Part shown: positions 1 to 12,162 of the stretch, piece after piece | How the letters are laid out: each line of letters starts with the position of its first letter | Position numbering within the stretch: position 1 is the first letter of the stretch | Assembly (NCBI GenBank): GCA_028288385.1 | Contig: JAQBNX010000047.1 | Span: forward strand, 1 to 33,826 | Origin: Spirosoma sp. | GTDB taxonomy: Bacteria > Bacteroidota > Bacteroidia > Cytophagales > Spirosomataceae | DNA length: 33,826 nt | Reading direction: 5' to 3' | Notes under the pieces: generated by a model | What the model saw: the letters and a program-made list of their open reading frames with translations, nothing else | Database searches by the model: none | Told to the model about the DNA's origin: nothing | Translations under genes and position numbers: made by a program

Positions 1-999
1 TACGGAACGGTCATTAAGCCGCTTTCCAATCGGGATGAATACGATATTGATCTGGTTTGTAGACTTCTAATTAACCAACATGCGGTATCCCAGCAGAGCC
101 TAAAAAAGATGGTAGGCGATCGGTTGAAAGCCCATAAGGATTATTTGCGCATGCTGGATGAAGAAGGTAGGCGATGTTGGCGATTGGATTATAACGAAGC
201 CGAACGATTTCATATGGACATTTTGCCCGCTATTCCAGATACATATGACTGGTTGTTACTGGCTGGAGTACCCGTAGAACTGGCTCAACATGCACTTTGC
301 ATTACCGATCGCGAAACATGGGGAACAGACATTGATTGGCCCAGAGCTAATCCGGAAGGATACGCCCGCTGGTTTTATTCACGGATGAGCGTTGCATTTG
401 CCCTGGCACAGCAAACGCTGGCCAATGAGATGCGGATGAAGGTAGAAGATGTACCTGCACACCGGGTAAAAACAGTCCTTCAGCAGGTTGTACAATTACT
501 GAAACGTCACCGGGATATCATGCTTGGCGATGATGAAGATAAACCAATATCAATAATTATCACGACGCTGGCTGCCTGGGCATATCAAAATGAAACGGAT
601 TTGCTTTCTGCAATGAAGAACATTTTAGCCGCGATTCCCAGCTTAATCCGTTTTGAGCGAGGTGTGTTTATTGTTGAAAATCCAGTCAATCCATTAGAGA
701 ATTTCGCTGATAAATGGGAAGGTAACCCAAAGAAAGCTGAGAAATTTTTCACCTGGGTTAATCAGGCTCAGCTTGATTTTAACAAGTTAGACAAGTTACG
801 AGGCTTACCAAATGTAGCCGTCAATCTAAAAGCGCATTTTGGTGAAGATATTGTCACCCGGGCCCTAAATTCCTTAGGTGATGAGACACGCCAAGTACGG
901 GAATCAGGAAACTTGTCAATGGATCGGGGTACGGGCTTGTTGTCAGGTGCCGCAGGCGGCATCAAAGTTTCCAATCACCATTTTTATGGCTCACGATAA
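1..999 (+). CDS. CBASS cyclic oligonucleotide synthase (CD-NTase/SMODS), CdnG-like; 5' end lies outside the window
   Basis: Frame 1 is open from base 1 (YGTVIKPLSNRDEYDIDLVC, carrying the DxD catalytic motif). Later motifs: RCWRLDY..FHMDILPAIP (third Asp), NPEGYARWF, LLKRHRD..DDKPISIIITTLAA and NPVNPLENFADKW. The C-terminus is HHFYG-SR. The ORF track start at 109 is internal. The clade call is from memory of the family. Confidence 0.9.
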   Translation, partial: YGTVIKPLSNRDEYDIDLVCRLLINQHAVSQQSLKKMVGDRLKAHKDYLRMLDEEGRRCWRLDYNEAERFHMDILPAIPDTYDWLLLAGVPVELAQHALCITDRETWGTDIDWPRANPEGYARWFYSRMSVAFALAQQTLANEMRMKVEDVPAHRVKTVLQQVVQLLKRHRDIMLGDDEDKPISIIITTLAAWAYQNETDLLSAMKNILAAIPSLIRFERGVFIVENPVNPLENFADKWEGNPKKAEKFFTWVNQAQLDFNKLDKLRGLPNVAVNLKAHFGEDIVTRALNSLGDETRQVRESGNLSMDRGTGLLSGAAGGIKVSNHHFYGSR

Positions 1000-1387
1000 A
1001 GGGCAGCGGGTGCCATTACCTACTCAGGGTGAATTGCTATGCCGGGTTATGCCAGGCAGCAAATTCACTCTGCAGCGGGACGAATTACGCTGGTGGGGGT
1101 GGGTCACTCCGAGCCTTATCAGTCTGACCTATAAAGTTAGGTTGACATACCGTATTGGCCGTCGGCCTGCTGTACAGGTCATGGATCCTTTGCTAACCAC
1201 CTTGCCCAATGTTACTCTTCCCCATACGTATGATGGGGAAGAACTATGCCTTTATTTTCCTGATGGGAAAGAATGGCATGACGGGATGCTTCTGGCTCAC
1301 CGTGTTCTTCCCTGGATTTCAGAATGGTTATACCACTATGAAATCTGGCTGGTTACCAAACAGTGGAATGGCGGAGGAATTCATTGA
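986..1387 (+). CDS. Stand-alone prokaryotic E2 (ubiquitin-conjugating-like) protein of type II-short CBASS, 133 aa
   Basis: LPHTYDGEELCLYFP (His...catalytic Cys) and C-terminal WISEWLYHYEIWLVTKQWNGGGIH. The ATG at 986 overlaps the cyclase 3' end and is preferred over the track start at 878. Confidence 0.8.
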   Translation: MAHDKGQRVPLPTQGELLCRVMPGSKFTLQRDELRWWGWVTPSLISLTYKVRLTYRIGRRPAVQVMDPLLTTLPNVTLPHTYDGEELCLYFPDGKEWHDGMLLAHRVLPWISEWLYHYEIWLVTKQWNGGGIH

Positions 1388-1461: not shown

Positions 1462-2508
1462 ATGGCAGACTTACAAACCCAGTTCGAGCAGTTTAATAAG
1501 ACCATTTGTTTGGGCCGTTTTGAGGAAGAGCAGACTCTACGGGATAAACGCGACATTGTACGTAAAAAAATCGAGGATTATCTTCCAGCCGTTTTTGAAA
1601 AATATGGAGAAACATGTCCAGAGTTTTACTTCCGTAACCAGGGTTCTTATGAGCTGGGAACAGGGATAAAGCCTTTGAACGGTGATTACGACATTGATCA
1701 GGGACTTTATTTTTTATGCAGCAAAGAGGATTATCCTGACCCGGTTACGTTAAAGAAACGAGTCCATGAAGCCTTAGAGGGTCACACGAAAGATGTTCGG
1801 ATTCGCCGTCCATGCGTGACTGTATTTTATCAGAAAAATGGTGAATATGTCTATCACGTTGATATCGCTATTTACTCAGCCGGGAATGTAGATGGAAAGA
1901 CCTATCTGGCTACAGGTCGACTGAATTCATTAGCTATTAATCGAGAGTGGCTTGCGGATGACCCAGCCACATTGGCTAAATTACTTAGCGAACGTTTTAG
2001 TGGCAATGACCGTAAGCAATTTCGACGTATTCTACGCTATCTAAAACGTTGGAAAGACTTTAATTTTAGCAAGGCTGGCTTTGCCTCTCCACGTGGTGTT
2101 GCTCTTTCCGTGGCTGCTTACTACTGGTTTTCCCCAGCTTATACGGACTGGTTCAGTGGCAAAATGAATGACTTAGGGGCTCTAAAATCCTTGGTCAAGG
2201 CTATGATTGATAATTTCCAGACTATTTCCTGGGTTGATTCTATTCGACGTCTGACGGTTAAATTACCTGTCGAACCAAATAATGATCTATTCGCCAAGAT
2301 GACCGATAACCAGATGAAAACGTTTGAACAGAATTTAACAGATCTTTATGTTATGTTGGTTAACGCTGAGCAGGATGCGGATCCAGTGACTGGCAGCCAA
2401 TCGCTACAAAACAAATCATTTGGTGCTGATTTTCCAGTACCTGCGAAAACCCAGACGGCTCAACGTTCTGCGACCACGGGTATAGTTGGGGTACACGAAT
2501 CAGCGTAA
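1462..2508 (+). CDS. Second CBASS CD-NTase (SMODS), CdnB-like, 348 aa
   Basis: QGSYELGTGIKPLNGDYDIDQGL (GS...DxD), HVDIAIY and RYLKRWKD. Extended C-terminal tail ending in HESA (terminal Ala, compatible with Cap2 conjugation). Confidence 0.92.
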   Translation: MADLQTQFEQFNKTICLGRFEEEQTLRDKRDIVRKKIEDYLPAVFEKYGETCPEFYFRNQGSYELGTGIKPLNGDYDIDQGLYFLCSKEDYPDPVTLKKRVHEALEGHTKDVRIRRPCVTVFYQKNGEYVYHVDIAIYSAGNVDGKTYLATGRLNSLAINREWLADDPATLAKLLSERFSGNDRKQFRRILRYLKRWKDFNFSKAGFASPRGVALSVAAYYWFSPAYTDWFSGKMNDLGALKSLVKAMIDNFQTISWVDSIRRLTVKLPVEPNNDLFAKMTDNQMKTFEQNLTDLYVMLVNAEQDADPVTGSQSLQNKSFGADFPVPAKTQTAQRSATTGIVGVHESA

Positions 2509-2511
2509 AAA

Positions 2512-4254
2512 ATGACTAGCAGCCCCAATCCGGAGTTAGAAACAATAGTACATAAATTACTTGAAGCAGGAAGTTTATCAGGAACATGGGTGCGTCTTAT
2601 ACCCTTACCTCGGTTGTACAAAGAGCGGGGAGCAGAAGCAGCTATACGGGGAGAGATAGATATTGATGGACAACCTATTATGGTAGATGTTGGATTCAAG
2701 TCGTCTTTTCCACTCAGTGTACCACTTGTTTATATCCAACCTGCCAATGCGCTTGGCTTTATTCCCCATCTTGAAGCAGATGGTTATGCGTGTTACGTTA
2801 GAGGGGATGGTCAGTTCGTAAATTATCATCAGCCAGCAGCTGTGGTCCGGGATGCTTTACAAAGAACCAGAGAAACCTTGTCACGCGGGTACCGGGGAGA
2901 AAATACGGTCGACTTCACAGACGGATTCGCAGAATACTGGAGCCGTTTACCTAACACAGGGTGGATACAATCTCTGGTAAAACCGTCAGAATCGTTTAAG
3001 AAAATCATTCTGGCTACAGGTTCGCCTAACAAGAAAAAACAATCAATTTACTTAGCCGACGACGAGCAAACGATTCGCTCGTTTTCCCCCCAATTGCGGG
3101 ATGAGGTATTTAATGTAAAAAAAGCATTCTATGTTCCTCTGGAAAAGGGAATACCTTTAATTCCGCCCTCTTTTGGCGCAATGTGGTCTCTTCAGGATAT
3201 TCATCAGATTATCAAATTACATACATCCGAAAAAACAAAACACAATCTCCAGCGCGCTACGCGCAAGTGGAAATCAGTTGAGACAGTTATTCTTGGATTG
3301 CCCCGGCCAGGCGGTGACTGGGCTTTATTCGGCATTACGTTTTCTGGGGTACAATATGCTTATCCACTTTGTGAAGCTTCATTGGTTCATAAAATACAGC
3401 CAATTATTCTGGACCGTCTGGATCGGGGCTATTTAATGGCGCGCGGAGGTAGTTCATTGAACTTACAAACCAAACATGTCGCTATAATTGGTTGTGGATC
3501 AGTTGGTGCATCTGTGGCAGTAGAATTAGCACGATCGGGAGTAGGACGTCTGACGTTAGTTGATAAAGACGTGTTAAGTGCAGAAAATGTCTTTCGCCAC
3601 CCTGTTGGTCAATATGCAGTTGGGTTGTCAAAAGTAGACGCAGTTAAGAGCGATTTGGAACTTCGGATACCCTACATTCGGGTAACTGCTATTGCTGAGC
3701 GAATCGAAACGTTGATCCGTACAAAGAAATTTGCCTGGTCAGACTTTGATTTAATTGTTATTGCAACCGGCGAACCAACAATAAACCTATATTTAAACGA
3801 GTCTCTCCGGAGAAGAAAATCCAGCCCACCAGCGCTTTATACGTGGTTAGACCCCTATGGTATCGGTGGACATACATTACTTGAGCAATATCATGACCAG
3901 CCCGGCTGCTTACAATGTATTTATGAGTTTACGGAGGATGGTTATTTAGCCAATCGGGCTTCTTTCGCCTTACCAGGCCAATCATTTCTGAAGGATTTAG
4001 CTGGTTGTGGCAGCTTGTTTACGCCTTTTGGATCATTAGATGTGCTGCGTACAGCCGAACAGACAGTGCGCATGGCCTTAAATTCTTTAGCCGGCAAAGG
4101 ATCTAACCAAATTTGTTCCTGGAAAGGTGATAGTACCATTTTCCAAGAAGGGGGTTTTCAACTCACTTCCCGATATGAATCTACGGAACAGGAGTTAATT
4201 AATCAGCGGACGTCTTTTCATCGTACTGATTGTCCCATTTGTCATCTTAACTAA
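2512..4254 (+). CDS. cap2: CBASS Cap2 E2-E1 (ThiF) fusion ubiquitin-like transferase
   Basis: N-terminal E2 motif IPHLEADGYAC. ThiF/E1 motifs IIGCGSVG and DKDVLSAENVFRH, Zn ligands CLQC and CPIC, and GCGSLFTPF. Starts 3 bp after the cyclase. Confidence 0.9.
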   Translation: MTSSPNPELETIVHKLLEAGSLSGTWVRLIPLPRLYKERGAEAAIRGEIDIDGQPIMVDVGFKSSFPLSVPLVYIQPANALGFIPHLEADGYACYVRGDGQFVNYHQPAAVVRDALQRTRETLSRGYRGENTVDFTDGFAEYWSRLPNTGWIQSLVKPSESFKKIILATGSPNKKKQSIYLADDEQTIRSFSPQLRDEVFNVKKAFYVPLEKGIPLIPPSFGAMWSLQDIHQIIKLHTSEKTKHNLQRATRKWKSVETVILGLPRPGGDWALFGITFSGVQYAYPLCEASLVHKIQPIILDRLDRGYLMARGGSSLNLQTKHVAIIGCGSVGASVAVELARSGVGRLTLVDKDVLSAENVFRHPVGQYAVGLSKVDAVKSDLELRIPYIRVTAIAERIETLIRTKKFAWSDFDLIVIATGEPTINLYLNESLRRRKSSPPALYTWLDPYGIGGHTLLEQYHDQPGCLQCIYEFTEDGYLANRASFALPGQSFLKDLAGCGSLFTPFGSLDVLRTAEQTVRMALNSLAGKGSNQICSWKGDSTIFQEGGFQLTSRYESTEQELINQRTSFHRTDCPICHLN

Positions 4255-4746
4255 ATGGAAACGAAGTGCTCTGATTTACTATTTGCTGACAATATAGGGA
4301 ATTTCAAATTACCCGGGCTAGTGGTCAATCAGATGCATCGATACAGGCAGGTAAAATCTAATATGCCCGAATCCGGTGGTTTGTTACTGGGTCGTTTTAT
4401 CATAAATAGCCCGGATGTTGTGGTTGATGAAATTACGACGCCATTACCTACCGATCGGAGTAGCCGGTTTCATTTTCGGCGTGGATCTTATGGCCACCAG
4501 CAAGTAATAAATGACCGTTGGTTTCAAAGCGATGGGACTTGTAACTACCTGGGCGAATGGCATACACATCCTGAACCTAATCCCGTACAATCGACGCTTG
4601 ACATTGCGAGTTGGCAGATGCAACTAGATCGCTTACCTGCAAACCAGAATGAATTGTTTTTTGCCATCCTCGGCACAAGTTCCATTGCTGTTTGGAAAGC
4701 ACTTCGTCAGCCTTTTTCCTATTATCAACTTATTCTGCTACCCTAA
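4255..4746 (+). CDS. cap3: CBASS Cap3 JAB/MPN deconjugating isopeptidase
   Basis: ESGGLLLG and YLGEWHTHPEPNPVQSTLD (E...HxH...S..D JAMM motif). Abuts cap2. Confidence 0.92.
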   Translation: METKCSDLLFADNIGNFKLPGLVVNQMHRYRQVKSNMPESGGLLLGRFIINSPDVVVDEITTPLPTDRSSRFHFRRGSYGHQQVINDRWFQSDGTCNYLGEWHTHPEPNPVQSTLDIASWQMQLDRLPANQNELFFAILGTSSIAVWKALRQPFSYYQLILLP

Positions 4747-4757
4747 CAAATACAGGT

Positions 4758-6560
4758 ATGACAACTGCCACAAACGTAATGATTATACGCCAGTCAGGTT
4801 TGCGGGCTATAAGTGAGAACGAAGTACTGGAAGTTTTTAGCAAAGATGAAACACGTTTGGCGCAGCACCCTGTCCTGGTGGATATGCAAGCATATCCAAT
4901 TGAAGGGGGGGATTGGACTGAATCAGAAGGCTATATACTTAATGAAGCGCGTAAAATCCGTGAGTATGCGGACCAGAAAAAAAATGTTAAGATTGCCTAT
5001 TTTGGTATAGCTGAAGTGCCACATATTATTGCGCTGGGTGCATTTTTAAGTGATCAGTACCACGTGGATGTTTTTGGATGGGATCGCGATAAAAACTCCT
5101 GGGAATGGCGGGCAACTGAGAACACGCTTAATGTGGTTACGAATGATTGGCCTAAAATTGTACTTCCATTGACGGGTTCAGCAATTATTCGTGTCGAGCT
5201 ATCTGCTTTTGTTGCTGATGCAGATGTAGAGGAAGCTGTTGGCAAAGATCATTTAGCTGATATCCGGATTCATCTTGGAGATGGACGTACACCAATGATT
5301 GGAGCTGGTATCGTTCAGTCACCAGCTGATGTACAACATGTACGGGAAACTTTCCGGCAAGCATTAGCGGAACTTAAGCAGTATCGTCCGAATGTAAATT
5401 TAATTCATTTGTTTGTTGCCGCTCCTGTGCCAGTTTGTTTTGTAATTGGACAGGAACTACAGCTACGGAACAATATTCCCATTCAAACGTATCGATTCCG
5501 TATAGTCCCTGATCAGCCATCACAAAAAAAAGCAATCTATCTCACTGGCGAAGAAGCAGAATCCGCCACCAGAACACTAACGCCGAAGCAGAAAGCGAGA
5601 GCGCGAAAAATTCGTACAAACATCTGGCCTGAAGTTCTGAAACAAGTTCAGCATTATGCCGAGACCAGGAAACGGGAAGCTCGCGACCAAAAGCGTATTT
5701 GGTTCGAGTATCTAACTAATCATGAAGACCTAATAATTGCCAATCCATTTCCCCGGCTTCCACCTATCTGGGAAGTTGTTGATCTTAAAGACACCGTGAG
5801 TAATCACCCAAGACCTACTGAATATGGGCATCCTACTGATTCAAATGAATGGGAATTAAGCGATTCACTGCTTATTGATTTATCGAATGCCTGTCGCGAT
5901 GATGATGAATTGAAACAACTCATCCGATTATTCTTATTCCACGAATATCTGCATATCCACCATTCGCTTAATAAATACAATGTAGAGCTGATTGGCAGAT
6001 TTGCCAACTGCCTGGAAAAGCTTGATTATGAGGCAGATTTATACGCATTGCTGCATCAACTTGACTATACATTATTCTATGAACCGGAGAAAGCGAAAAA
6101 ACGGGAAAAAGAATTTCTGGAAGAACAATTAGATCTGATTCTTCGATCTACCTGGGCATTCGTACAGGGAGCAACGGTCAACCGACCGCAGGTAAGGGCA
6201 GTCAGGCGTTTGCTAAACTGGTATTGGCGTCATGTTCAGGTTCAGCGGGCCGACAGACTCGTCGTTGCACTGGCTGTCCTATCAAAAGCCCCTACTATCG
6301 AATTAATAGGCCCCATGCTATCTGTTGGGAGTAGCCGGGTCTATATGTCCATGGTTGACCTTGATAAAACTGTGGAATTGTCATTGGGTATAGTCTTAGA
6401 AAACGAGAAATTTCTCCGGCGTGAAGATGCAGTTAATTTTAGTTTGAAGAAGTTGTTAGATGCCTTTCGAACTCGTGATCATAATTCGATTAAGAAGTTC
6501 TTTTTAGGCATTTTTGAAGAAGCGAAAGAGAAGAGCGGATCGCTTCCTGCTATAGATTAG
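4758..6560 (+). CDS. CBASS effector: N-terminal SAVED domain plus C-terminal HEXXH zinc-metallopeptidase-like domain, 600 aa
   Basis: SAVED half-motifs IAYFGIAEVPHIIALGAFL and IHLFVAAPVPVCFVIGQEL. C-terminal LFLFHEYLHIHH...LEKLDYEADLYAL. ATG at 4758 is preferred over the TTG at 4692, which overlaps cap3. Confidence 0.8.
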   Translation: MTTATNVMIIRQSGLRAISENEVLEVFSKDETRLAQHPVLVDMQAYPIEGGDWTESEGYILNEARKIREYADQKKNVKIAYFGIAEVPHIIALGAFLSDQYHVDVFGWDRDKNSWEWRATENTLNVVTNDWPKIVLPLTGSAIIRVELSAFVADADVEEAVGKDHLADIRIHLGDGRTPMIGAGIVQSPADVQHVRETFRQALAELKQYRPNVNLIHLFVAAPVPVCFVIGQELQLRNNIPIQTYRFRIVPDQPSQKKAIYLTGEEAESATRTLTPKQKARARKIRTNIWPEVLKQVQHYAETRKREARDQKRIWFEYLTNHEDLIIANPFPRLPPIWEVVDLKDTVSNHPRPTEYGHPTDSNEWELSDSLLIDLSNACRDDDELKQLIRLFLFHEYLHIHHSLNKYNVELIGRFANCLEKLDYEADLYALLHQLDYTLFYEPEKAKKREKEFLEEQLDLILRSTWAFVQGATVNRPQVRAVRRLLNWYWRHVQVQRADRLVVALAVLSKAPTIELIGPMLSVGSSRVYMSMVDLDKTVELSLGIVLENEKFLRREDAVNFSLKKLLDAFRTRDHNSIKKFFLGIFEEAKEKSGSLPAID

Positions 6561-6615
6561 TTGAAATTGAACTAAAATAGTGACTATTTTGTGTTTTTAC
6601 CACAACGAAACCGCT

Positions 6616-7992
6616 ATGTTAGTTCATTTCCGAATTAGAAACTTCATGTCTATCCGCGACGAGCAGATCTTTAGTCTCGTTGCCGTTTCCGGTTTAAAAG
6701 AGCAACAAGAGCATTTATCTAATAATTTGATAGTAGCCACTGGAGAGCTTGATGTATTACGGTCGGCAGTCGTATACGGAGCTAACGCTAGTGGCAAGAG
6801 TAACTTGCTACGGGCCATAGAATTTTTCATTGATAGCATCACACTTGCCCCTCCAACCGGCTCAGCAGTTAGTTCGTACAGTCCCTTTGTGCTTGATCAG
6901 AAATCGCCCGGCGAGCCCACTTTATTAGAAGCCATATTTGTTATGAATAATGTGGTTTATCGATATGGGTTTGAAGTGCAACAGCAAGCTGTTATAGCAG
7001 AATGGCTCTTTATCCGGCGCAAACAGGAAACGTATGTTTTCGACAGGTCCAGTGTTGAGCTACGCATAAACAGACCTTACAAAAAACTGATCGAACTTCA
7101 GAATAACAAAATGGTAGCGCAGACAGCACTGCTACTAAATTTAGGGGCGCTATTTAATGACGAAACCTGTCAAACTGTTCAGAACTGGGCATCCGATGTA
7201 CGTTGTATACAAGGAACGGAAGACTATCAATTCCGAGATTACACTATTCAATATTTAGAAAAACCCGAGAACAAACAACGTATATTAAATCTGTTACGGG
7301 ACGCCGATCTAGGGATTGAAGATATTGAACTAATACGACCTGAAAAAAAGACATTAACCGAGGTTGTGGTAAAACCAACTAAATTTTATGGAGGAGACTG
7401 GATTCCATCAAATCCAACTGCATTGACTGAATACCTTCAAGGCTCTTATAGGATGAAGACGAGCATCCAAAATATTGGATTAAAATCAACCAGGGTATTC
7501 TGGGATGCGAGAACAAGTCAATTTAAATCCATATCGATGCCATTCAATTCGTTTGAATCCCAAGGCACCCAAAAATTTTTTAATCTTATAGGGCTTATCC
7601 TATGGCATTTAGACAATGGCGGTGTTTTGATTGCAGATGAATTAGATACGAAACTGCATCCACTATTGACGCAACGAATAGTGCAGCTATTCAACAGTTC
7701 TTTGACCAATCCCCGAAACGCTCAGTTTGTATTTGCCACGCACGATACCAATTTATTAAGTGCTGGCCTTTTTAGGCGGGACCAGATTTGGTTTACAGAA
7801 AAGGATAGTCTTGGGGCTACTCAACTTTATGCGCTTACCGACTACAAACCTGGTGGTAAAACTGTTCGGAACGATGAACAATTAGAAAAAAATTACATTG
7901 CCGGAAAGTATGGGGGCATTCCCTATCTAGGCAACTTTGATGCTCTTTTTGAACGAGATCCAATGGCAGAAGAAATCCCTGCACATGAGTAA
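6616..7992 (+). CDS. AAA_21/ABC-type ATPase, RloA/AbiLi-like
   Basis: FRIRNFMSI, Walker A GANASGKS, signature ESQGTQK, Walker B IADELDTKLHP, ATHD and RRDQIWFTEK. The ATG at 6616 is the likely start. Confidence 0.88.
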   Translation: MLVHFRIRNFMSIRDEQIFSLVAVSGLKEQQEHLSNNLIVATGELDVLRSAVVYGANASGKSNLLRAIEFFIDSITLAPPTGSAVSSYSPFVLDQKSPGEPTLLEAIFVMNNVVYRYGFEVQQQAVIAEWLFIRRKQETYVFDRSSVELRINRPYKKLIELQNNKMVAQTALLLNLGALFNDETCQTVQNWASDVRCIQGTEDYQFRDYTIQYLEKPENKQRILNLLRDADLGIEDIELIRPEKKTLTEVVVKPTKFYGGDWIPSNPTALTEYLQGSYRMKTSIQNIGLKSTRVFWDARTSQFKSISMPFNSFESQGTQKFFNLIGLILWHLDNGGVLIADELDTKLHPLLTQRIVQLFNSSLTNPRNAQFVFATHDTNLLSAGLFRRDQIWFTEKDSLGATQLYALTDYKPGGKTVRNDEQLEKNYIAGKYGGIPYLGNFDALFERDPMAEEIPAHE

Positions 7993-8617
7993 ACCATCGC
8001 ATAGGGAATACTCAATCCATCGGAGGCCTGCATTTCGTCCTGAACGAGAGTCCTTTCTTATTTTGTGTGAAGGTGAAAATACAGAGCCTCTATACTTCAA
8101 TGCCTTTAGATTGACAACGGCTACCGTTCGAGCATTACCTGTTACAACAGGTGATGCCATGGCAGTAGTGCAGGCTGCGATCAAACGTCGTAAGATTGAG
8201 AATAATAATGGCAAAGAATATGACCATTATTGGGTGGTTTTTGATCGGGATGAGACACCTTCAGAAACTTTTAATAACGCCATTAGAGTGGCACAATCAA
8301 TTGGTTTTCAGGTAGCTTATAGCAACCAGGCATTTGAACTGTGGTTTTTACTACACTATGACTATGTATCGGGTCCACTGCATCGAAACCAATATGCAAA
8401 TCGATTAGGCGATTTGATTGGCTTCCTCTATAGCAAACATAAAGATACTGCACGCATAATGTTTCAGGTACTACTGGAGCGACAACAACTAGCGATTGAG
8501 AATGCCCAGCGTTTATATGCCCAGTATGACAATGGATCAGGTTACCGAAACCCGGCTGAAGAGGAATCAAGTACGACTGTTTATCAATTAGTAGAAAAAC
8601 TTAGATCATTCATGTAA
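7985..8617 (+). CDS. rloB: RloB/AbiLii-like TOPRIM-fold protein
   Basis: LILCEGENTEPLYF, WVVFDRD, AYSNQAFELWFLLHY and STTVYQLVE. Overlaps the ATPase stop by 8 bp. Confidence 0.88.
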   Translation: MSKPSHREYSIHRRPAFRPERESFLILCEGENTEPLYFNAFRLTTATVRALPVTTGDAMAVVQAAIKRRKIENNNGKEYDHYWVVFDRDETPSETFNNAIRVAQSIGFQVAYSNQAFELWFLLHYDYVSGPLHRNQYANRLGDLIGFLYSKHKDTARIMFQVLLERQQLAIENAQRLYAQYDNGSGYRNPAEEESSTTVYQLVEKLRSFM

Positions 8618-11061: not shown

Positions 11062-11123
11062 ATACATTTTTACAATTATATAAAATCATGATATTATGAT
11101 TTTATATAATTGTAAAAATGTAT
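11062..11123. repeat. 62-bp near-perfect palindrome (28-bp arms, 6-nt centre)
   Basis: ATACATTTTTACAATTATATAAAATCAT-gatatt-ATGATTTTATATAATTGTAAAAATGTAT; the arms are exact reverse complements. Confidence 0.95.
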
Positions 11124-12110: not shown

Positions 12111-12162
12111 ATTATATATAATTGTGAAATAATATATTTTAATTTTCACAATTATATATAAT
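12111..12162. repeat. Inverted repeat with 19-bp arms and a 14-nt spacer
   Basis: ATTATATATAATTGTGAAA (12111-12129) and TTTCACAATTATATATAAT (12144-12162). Confidence 0.9.

Follow-up and report, generated by a model that had tools for sequence, protein, structure and literature searches.

The gene at 4758..6560 (+ strand) of this Spirosoma contig is real and intact. It belongs to a family of CBASS effectors that is listed in databases but experimentally uncharacterised, and it shows some traits that the database label does not reveal. Its product joins an N-terminal SAVED sensor to a HExxH zinc-peptidase-like domain. This combination had been claimed by an earlier sequence-only reading and is now backed by the operon context, the invariance of the motif, structural neighbours dominated by zincins, and language-model neighbours. 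We consider it probable that the effector is a zinc protease that is activated by a cyclic oligonucleotide and arrests the phage-infected cell by cutting a conserved host protein.

The effector gene and its operon

The window (33,826 nt) is the whole of contig C845 from a 71%-complete genome. The effector (P0001, 600 aa) is the last of four genes on the + strand that form a type II CBASS operon. It is preceded by a CdnB-like CD-NTase, likely the cognate cyclase (1462..2508; Pfam DncV-like; PADLOC PDLC00795, E 1.2e-114), by Cap2, an E2-E1 fusion (2512..4254; Prok-E2_B and ThiF; PADLOC E1-E2, E 2e-164), and by Cap3, a JAB isopeptidase (4255..4746; Pfam, PADLOC and NCBIfam). The gaps between the four genes are 3, 0 and 11 nt if the effector starts at the ATG at 4758. 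This start fits those of the homologues, 19 of 29 of which begin within one column of it in the alignment, and a longer version starting at a TTG at 4692 finds no support from homologue starts. The ORF from 4758 to 6560 is free of stops, and contigs from one DNA run, possibly of the source sample, show zero differing letters across the effector region. In the PDB, the cyclase is closest to 8ysc/8ysd (E 4.7e-73) and also matches 7ljo (E 6e-13). The latter is named CdnB in PMC12804361; the former is presumably CdnB of Deinococcus wulumuqiensis, judging from that source and the neighbouring entry 8ysq.

A second cyclase, a CdnG-like CD-NTase (1..999, + strand; 9woo, E 1.2e-51; SmCdnG 8hsb, E 2.4e-34), is cut by the contig start, and its upstream part was not found on other contigs of the genome. 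It is followed by a stand-alone E2 of a short type II CBASS (878..1387, + strand; PADLOC E2, E 8.7e-41; the true start may be an ATG near 986). Directly after the CBASS cluster lies an AbiL-like pair (6580-8617, + strand) of an AAA_21 ATPase (AbiLi-like, 6580..7992) and a RloB-like protein (AbiLii-like, 7937..8617), both identified by Pfam and PADLOC; the pair recurs on contig C488 of the same genome and at the related loci L002 and L004. Elsewhere on the contig are T4SS coupling, TraG, TraM, Toprim, DUF5712 and DUF4138 genes, so the CBASS cluster is probably cargo of a conjugative element. An AT-rich stretch between a DUF6371 gene and mobilisation genes contains a palindrome of 31+31 nt (11062-11123, 97% complementary) and related inverted repeats (12111-12162), possibly the origin of the conjugative element. 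Promoter and terminator scans gave results at chance level. No RNA dataset was listed as containing the region, which speaks neither for nor against its expression.

The family is already catalogued in PADLOC 2.0 as a full-length CBASS effector model. Residues 4-581 match positions 4-588 of the 598 in PDLC00754 ('Peptidase' CBASS effector, E 1.4e-80), and PDLC02018 ('SAVED_peptidaseM48') matches at E 3.6e-22, or at E 5e-101 in the case of the distant member L060. Family and architecture are the same, and the CD-NTase context also fits. These entries are computational labels, and the M48 label fails the M48 membership tests described below. Such SAVED-peptidase fusions were reportedly listed by Burroughs in 2015, Millman in 2020 and Makarova in 2020. 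A full-text literature search, which left most subscription papers outside its scope, found no paper characterising the ligand, substrate or activity of the family. The novelty that the sequence-only reading had seen was overstated in view of PDLC00754 and 'SAVED_peptidaseM48'.

The same genome carries a paralogue of the effector on C488 that is 61% identical and intact at 598 aa; a suspected internal TAA break in this copy was rejected for that reason. It belongs to a second CBASS cluster (C488:3668-14058, part of which is our locus L064), a type III system with a divergent HTH-peptidase regulator. Its gene order, with labels taken from the close orthologues L002 and L004, is CdnC-like cyclase, HORMA, TRIP13, effector, HNH-SAVED, CdnG-like cyclase, E2, AAA and RloB.

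The SAVED sensor and its candidate messengers

The N-terminal part of the effector (4767..5501, + strand; aa 4-248) is a SAVED domain, as had been proposed. It is recognised by PF18145 (aa 65-247, E 4.4e-34) and NF033611 (aa 4-248, E 1.3e-36), and a Foldseek search with the full effector model matched only SAVED, with Cap5 structures on top (best E 9.6e-14). Cap5 (HNH-SAVED), which provides the closest solved SAVED domains, is a nuclease effector with SAVED at the C-terminus, unlike the N-terminal SAVED found here. The earlier statement that SAVED is usually C-terminal has to be set against SAVED-CHAT, in which an N-terminal SAVED on a protease is known.

Residues equivalent to those of Cap5 were counted by hand on the alignments, using the residues named in PMC8568899. 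The back-face residues D220, R310 and K347 of Cap5 correspond to D99, R200 and R237 of the effector, and these stacking residues are kept in 29, 32 and 34 of 36 family members, respectively. The 2'-5' phosphate binders R234 and S274 correspond to R110 (29 of 36) and S149 (33 of 36). The position of the guanine-reading R281 holds an Arg in 0 of 36 members and mostly an Asp. The domain is therefore matched by profile and by fold and has conserved residues on both its ligand face and its back face.

The SAVED domains of the effectors at L001 and at L004/C488 are 86% identical and cluster with that of the effector P0001 in each of two quick trees, with support values of 98 and 99. At L001, a CdnB-like enzyme is the only cyclase in 19.8 kb, while the L004/C488 effectors adjoin a CdnC-like cyclase. 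The presence of such similar sensors beside both cyclase types suggests a messenger common to the two, and on this basis cyclic tri-AMP (cA3) is our best guess, one that may equally well prove right or wrong. E. coli CdnC makes cAAA. Published work names cAAA as the activator of NucC and cA3 as the product of a type II cyclase of B. cereus. The main alternative, to which we give clearly less weight, is whatever the neighbouring CdnG makes; the CdnGs characterised so far make 3'2'-cGAMP. A CdnG is also encoded in the window and on C488, and many family loci have CdnG alone; the messenger may therefore differ from member to member of the family.

The HExxH domain and its predicted metal site

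The effector domain (5571..6557, + strand; aa 272-600) has a zincin-like core at about aa 281-471, which is followed by an extra helix/beta-sheet subdomain. In the C-terminal part of this protein and of 50 members, a Pfam scan picked up neither a nuclease nor a TIR domain nor any other family, and the five most hydrophobic 19-aa windows all lie inside the SAVED domain. The reported lack of nuclease, TIR and TM motifs could thus be confirmed, and an HEPN, HD, nuclease, TIR or TM effector was rejected (no Pfam match, no hydrophobic helix in the domain and no structural match).

The HEYLH motif (5940..5954, + strand; H395-H399) and the acidic motif downstream of it, LEKLDYEADLYA, which begins at L419, are present as described before. 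H395 and H399 are predicted metal ligands and E396 is the predicted catalytic Glu; the second motif lies at the helix E420-x-x-D423-Y-x-A-D427 (6015..6038, + strand). Among 20,000 shuffles of aa 266-600, HExxH alone arose in 2.9% and HExxH..[ED]xxAD in 0.02%. Each of the residues H395, E396, H399, E420, D423 and D427 was found in 120 of 120 among the matches listed, which are 39–73% identical to the effector, and in 145-148 of the 147-148 covering rows among the best 150 of 517 clusters. We also compiled a deeper set of 183 proteins from both profile searches, covering both subfamilies and requiring more than 180 aa of domain match. Here, H395, E396 and H399 are kept in 182, E420 in 180 (it is replaced in three), and D423, which is replaced in none, and D427 in all 183. 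Conservation extends to the Arg/Trp-rich extra subdomain with the nearly invariant helix R480-x-x-x-R484-x-L-x-W488 (6195..6227, + strand): R480 is kept in 181, R484 in 180 and W488 in 179 of the 183 proteins, R527 in 174 of 182 and R554 in 174 of 181.

In gluzincins, the third ligand is a Glu on the next helix, with an Asp four residues later. Lit shows this layout (H160-E161-x-x-H164 ... E181-x-x-A184-D185-x-x-A188), and D423-x-x-A426-D427-x-x-A430 of the effector matches the register of E181-x-x-A184-D185-x-x-A188. Judged by this motif register, the third metal-ligand position would thus be held by an Asp, D423, and not by a Glu. The Asp-to-Arg spacing is 53 in both proteins. Because hhalign, in a weak match (48 columns, probability 2.9%), uses another register and pairs D423 with D185 of Lit, E420, one turn before D423, is kept as an alternative candidate for the third ligand.

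The structural comparison suggested along with the sequence-only reading yielded a confident model of the full effector (mean pLDDT 93.4, pTM 0.88); a second model, which underlies the boundaries of the effector domain, has a mean pLDDT of 93.9. HExxH lies on helix 382-401, and confidence is lowest at aa 401-420, between the two predicted metal helices. The earlier description of the C-terminal part as helical needs one correction, since a beta-sheet is modelled at about aa 513-556. Foldseek found nothing significant for this domain in the PDB (best PprI, E 0.66) and nothing at E 0.001 or better among viral structures, and a PDB sequence search with the domain profile returned nothing real. 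VIA-align against 48,161 chains placed selecase first (Z 6.2, rmsd 3.7, 108 aligned, spanning about aa 284-471), and 17 of the 20 best-ranked rows can be assigned by title or name to zinc metallopeptidases, including PepO, neprilysin, BepA and Ste24. Z values of 6.2 or less are in the range that the tool calls common, so that each row is weak alone and the evidence is the agreement among them. A non-peptidase fold of the HEPN or HD kind was not seen. VIA-align gave no credible structural match for the extra C-terminal subdomain. ESM feature neighbours were Peptidase U49/M48/IrrE-like clusters with scores of 0.87-0.91, a lead only, as 4–10% of shuffled proteins reach 0.91.

The resemblance to Lit/U49, IrrE and M48 that the earlier reading had pointed out holds for the two metal-binding helices and, by hhalign, for nothing beyond them. 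No Pfam peptidase family matched in 50 members. The Peptidase U49 profiles (PF10463 / NCBIfam Lit) did not match the effector, and by Pfam they matched 0 of 50 members; as a control, Lit itself matches its own NCBIfam model at E 1.2e-104. M48 peptidases have an HP..R motif and usually membrane anchors. PF01435 matched neither the effector nor any of 50 members, and the HP..R motif is absent. In U49, the His and Arg of the H-x5-R (HP..R) motif are invariant in 4 of 4 sequences, whereas none of 275 family members has an HP in the 12 aa that precede the Arg helix, the Arg itself being present at the Lit spacing. An alignment of 10 CapP/IrrE-like (ImmA-like) sequences matched over 12 columns with a probability of 1% (hhalign), and a profile comparison with Lit and CapP, made from a shallow alignment, gave no match. 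Since the U49, M48 and IrrE tests failed, the effector domain is zincin-like but outside those families by the tests run.

Lit (peptidase U49, from E. coli prophage e14) is a HExxH zinc protease in phage exclusion and has the [E/D]xxADxxA helix in common with the effector. However, it stands alone and responds to EF-Tu that has the T4 Gol peptide bound, and the effector differs from it in the missing PF10463 match, the missing HP..R, the Asp in place of Glu, the extra C-terminal subdomain and the His-to-ligand spacing (24 versus 17). CapP/IrrE (PprI) proteins likewise have HExxH and a downstream helix with an acidic ligand (H97, E98, H101 and E128 in CapP) and occur at CBASS loci, including many of the effector family, where their genes often lie upstream. 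They are, however, regulators that respond to ssDNA, carry HTH and GAF domains and cleave a repressor, and only the 12-column HExxH helix aligns with the effector (VIA Z 2.3-2.5). A cysteine switch as in CapP was rejected as a family feature, with C418 being a Cys in only 22 of 183 proteins.

Some of these features would also fit an enzyme with a zincin fold and a metal site that acts on a non-peptide anionic substrate (a nucleotide, a cofactor or nucleic acid) and, once activated, depletes or damages it. The four near-invariant arginines R480, R484, R527 and R554, the Asp at the ligand position, the lack of an HP motif and the rank-3 structural neighbour PolE, a non-peptidase Fe enzyme (Z 5.4), are in line with this explanation. 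We nevertheless regard it as quite unlikely: 182 of 183 proteins retain the Glu of HExxH that would serve as general base, the structural and language-model neighbours are mostly peptidases, and Lit, too, has a conserved Arg at equal spacing.

Distribution of the family and the proposed mode of action

A word-indexed protein search with the effector returned 222 proteins, 120 of them listed, and a search with the C-terminal domain profile, at a cut-off of E 0.001, retrieved 517 clusters formed at 50% identity. Among the best 150 of the 517, SAVED precedes the domain in 102 of the 103 representatives that have at least 200 aa before it; the remaining 47 are too short there to judge the N-terminus. 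Named hosts include Fibrisoma, Fibrella, Dyadobacter, Hymenobacter, Tepidisphaeraceae, Phycisphaerae, Polyangiaceae, Gemmatimonadota and Nitrospira, i.e. the family spans several phyla. It is also rare, being present in 0 of 400 sampled genomes of the phylum and 0 of 300 of the order. No copies were found in IMG/VR (viral), INPHARED (phage) or PLSDB (plasmid), and one named plasmid record carries a member (L002).

The HExxH domain was also observed behind other N-termini, although some of these proteins may be assembly chimeras: receiver-like segments (P0061 by a Pfam match, P0231 weakly, P0127 by eye), unknown domains (P0152, P0157), an E2-like segment seen by eye (P0123) and a double SAVED (P0240). 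Among 41 relatives of the distant member L060, ten are three-domain CHAT-SAVED-HExxH proteins (P0289-P0291, P0293, P0294, P0296-P0298, P0300, P0305), with a caspase-like and a metallopeptidase-like domain on one sensor.

According to the literature, certain SAVED domains act as ring nucleases. One could therefore imagine that the main role of the effector is to bind or break down the messenger, or to poison the cell through filament formation, with the HExxH site being structural or regulatory. This is very improbable in our view, as no residues of the protein are more conserved than the catalytic-type ones of the C-terminal part, and the occurrence of the domain behind non-SAVED N-termini is expected of a mobile enzymatic effector.

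We compared 65 loci (63 fetched and the two in this genome), which are mostly short contigs. Twenty-one of them, including some near-duplicates, are long, with at least 1.5 kb on both sides of the effector. Twenty of these 21 have a CD-NTase at a distance of no more than about 4 kb, and the last one (L050) has one by PADLOC. Four kinds of cyclase occur at the loci: CdnB-like with Cap2/Cap3, CdnC-like with HORMA/TRIP13, CdnG-like with E2, and a small PDLC00803-type enzyme with no PDB relative. At L003, L006, L007, L008, L011 and L038, a CdnG-like cyclase and a small PDLC00803-type cyclase (about 255 aa) flank one SAVED-peptidase effector. No conserved non-CBASS neighbour was present among 555 ORFs from the 65 loci, a count that a partner encoded elsewhere would escape. 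A co-encoded dedicated substrate was not found, with no candidate gene being shared at the 21 long loci.

This result bears on the question of what the protease would cut. SAVED-CHAT (Haliangium) and CalpL (Lon-SAVED) are likewise SAVED proteases gated by cyclic oligonucleotides, and SAVED-CHAT also has its SAVED at the N-terminus and forms filaments glued by cA3. The two are cysteine or serine proteases of type III CRISPR systems with a co-encoded substrate (PCaspase and CalpT), whereas the effector is of the HExxH type, occurs in CBASS and has no conserved substrate gene. Related literature is PMC9704534, PMC10419184, PMC11506125, PMC11153139, PMC3014915 and PMC12948482, together with the bioRxiv preprints 2023.06.23.546230, 2022.05.04.490601, 2024.10.26.620412 and 2026.05.16.725639.

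By analogy with CalpL/CalpT and SAVED-CHAT/PCaspase, the effector could be a relay that, rather than killing the cell itself, cuts one dedicated defence or regulatory protein, such as an anti-sigma factor, a zymogen toxin or a CBASS protein (the cyclase, the E2 or a second effector). Both characterised SAVED proteases act in this way through a dedicated co-encoded substrate. An HNH-SAVED nuclease adjoins the effector in 5 of the 21 long loci, the CHAT-SAVED-HExxH proteins exist, and a weak sigma70-region-2 gene (E 0.0004) lies near the L001 effector. We consider a relay unlikely, however. There is no conserved non-CBASS neighbour, 16 of the 21 long loci, in which other effector types were only partly scanned, have no second SAVED protein, and the ancillary proteins vary by locus (Cap2/Cap3, E2 alone or HORMA/TRIP13), so that none of them is a shared target.

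We therefore return to a protease that cuts a host protein. As in characterised CBASS, infection would activate the CdnB-like cyclase under the control of Cap2/Cap3, leading to a cyclic oligonucleotide. The messenger would then hold the SAVED domains together in a head-to-tail stack of the kind known from Cap5, TIR-SAVED and SAVED-CHAT, and this stacking may open or order the active site. A candidate for the gate is loop 400-416, which is conserved and modelled with lower confidence. The zinc would be bound by H395, H399 and D423, with E396 activating a water molecule. The target would be a housekeeping protein rather than a co-encoded partner, in parallel to Lit cutting EF-Tu, and its proteolysis would arrest the infected cell in the course of defence. 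The weak fold matches, the lack of a Pfam peptidase match, the weak profile match to Lit/U49, the lack of an HP motif and the unusual Asp at the ligand position weigh against this proposal.

More tentatively, and at somewhat less than an even chance, the domain may constitute a metallopeptidase family of its own, marked by the Arg-rich subdomain and by an Asp where gluzincins have their Glu ligand, and would then be the first zinc protease shown to be under the control of a cyclic oligonucleotide. It would serve at least four cyclase types in several phyla without a partner gene because its target is a universally conserved host protein, as with Lit, whose trigger is different.

The CBASS effectors characterised so far act by cutting DNA, breaking membranes or destroying NAD, and the two SAVED proteases studied experimentally are of the cysteine or serine type and have their substrates encoded alongside. 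For CBASS, an output through a metalloprotease was so far listed only in databases, with no experiment found. To these listings we add the failed Pfam M48, Lit/U49 and IrrE tests, the Asp at the third-ligand register, the Arg/Trp-rich subdomain, the cyclases of four types at all 21 long loci with no common substrate gene, and a paralogue in a type III CBASS. With a complete four-gene system, a paralogue beside a different cyclase class and a set of residues for mutation (E396, D423, E420 and R237), ligand, activation and target become testable. A ligand-gated zinc protease of this kind could serve as a switch.
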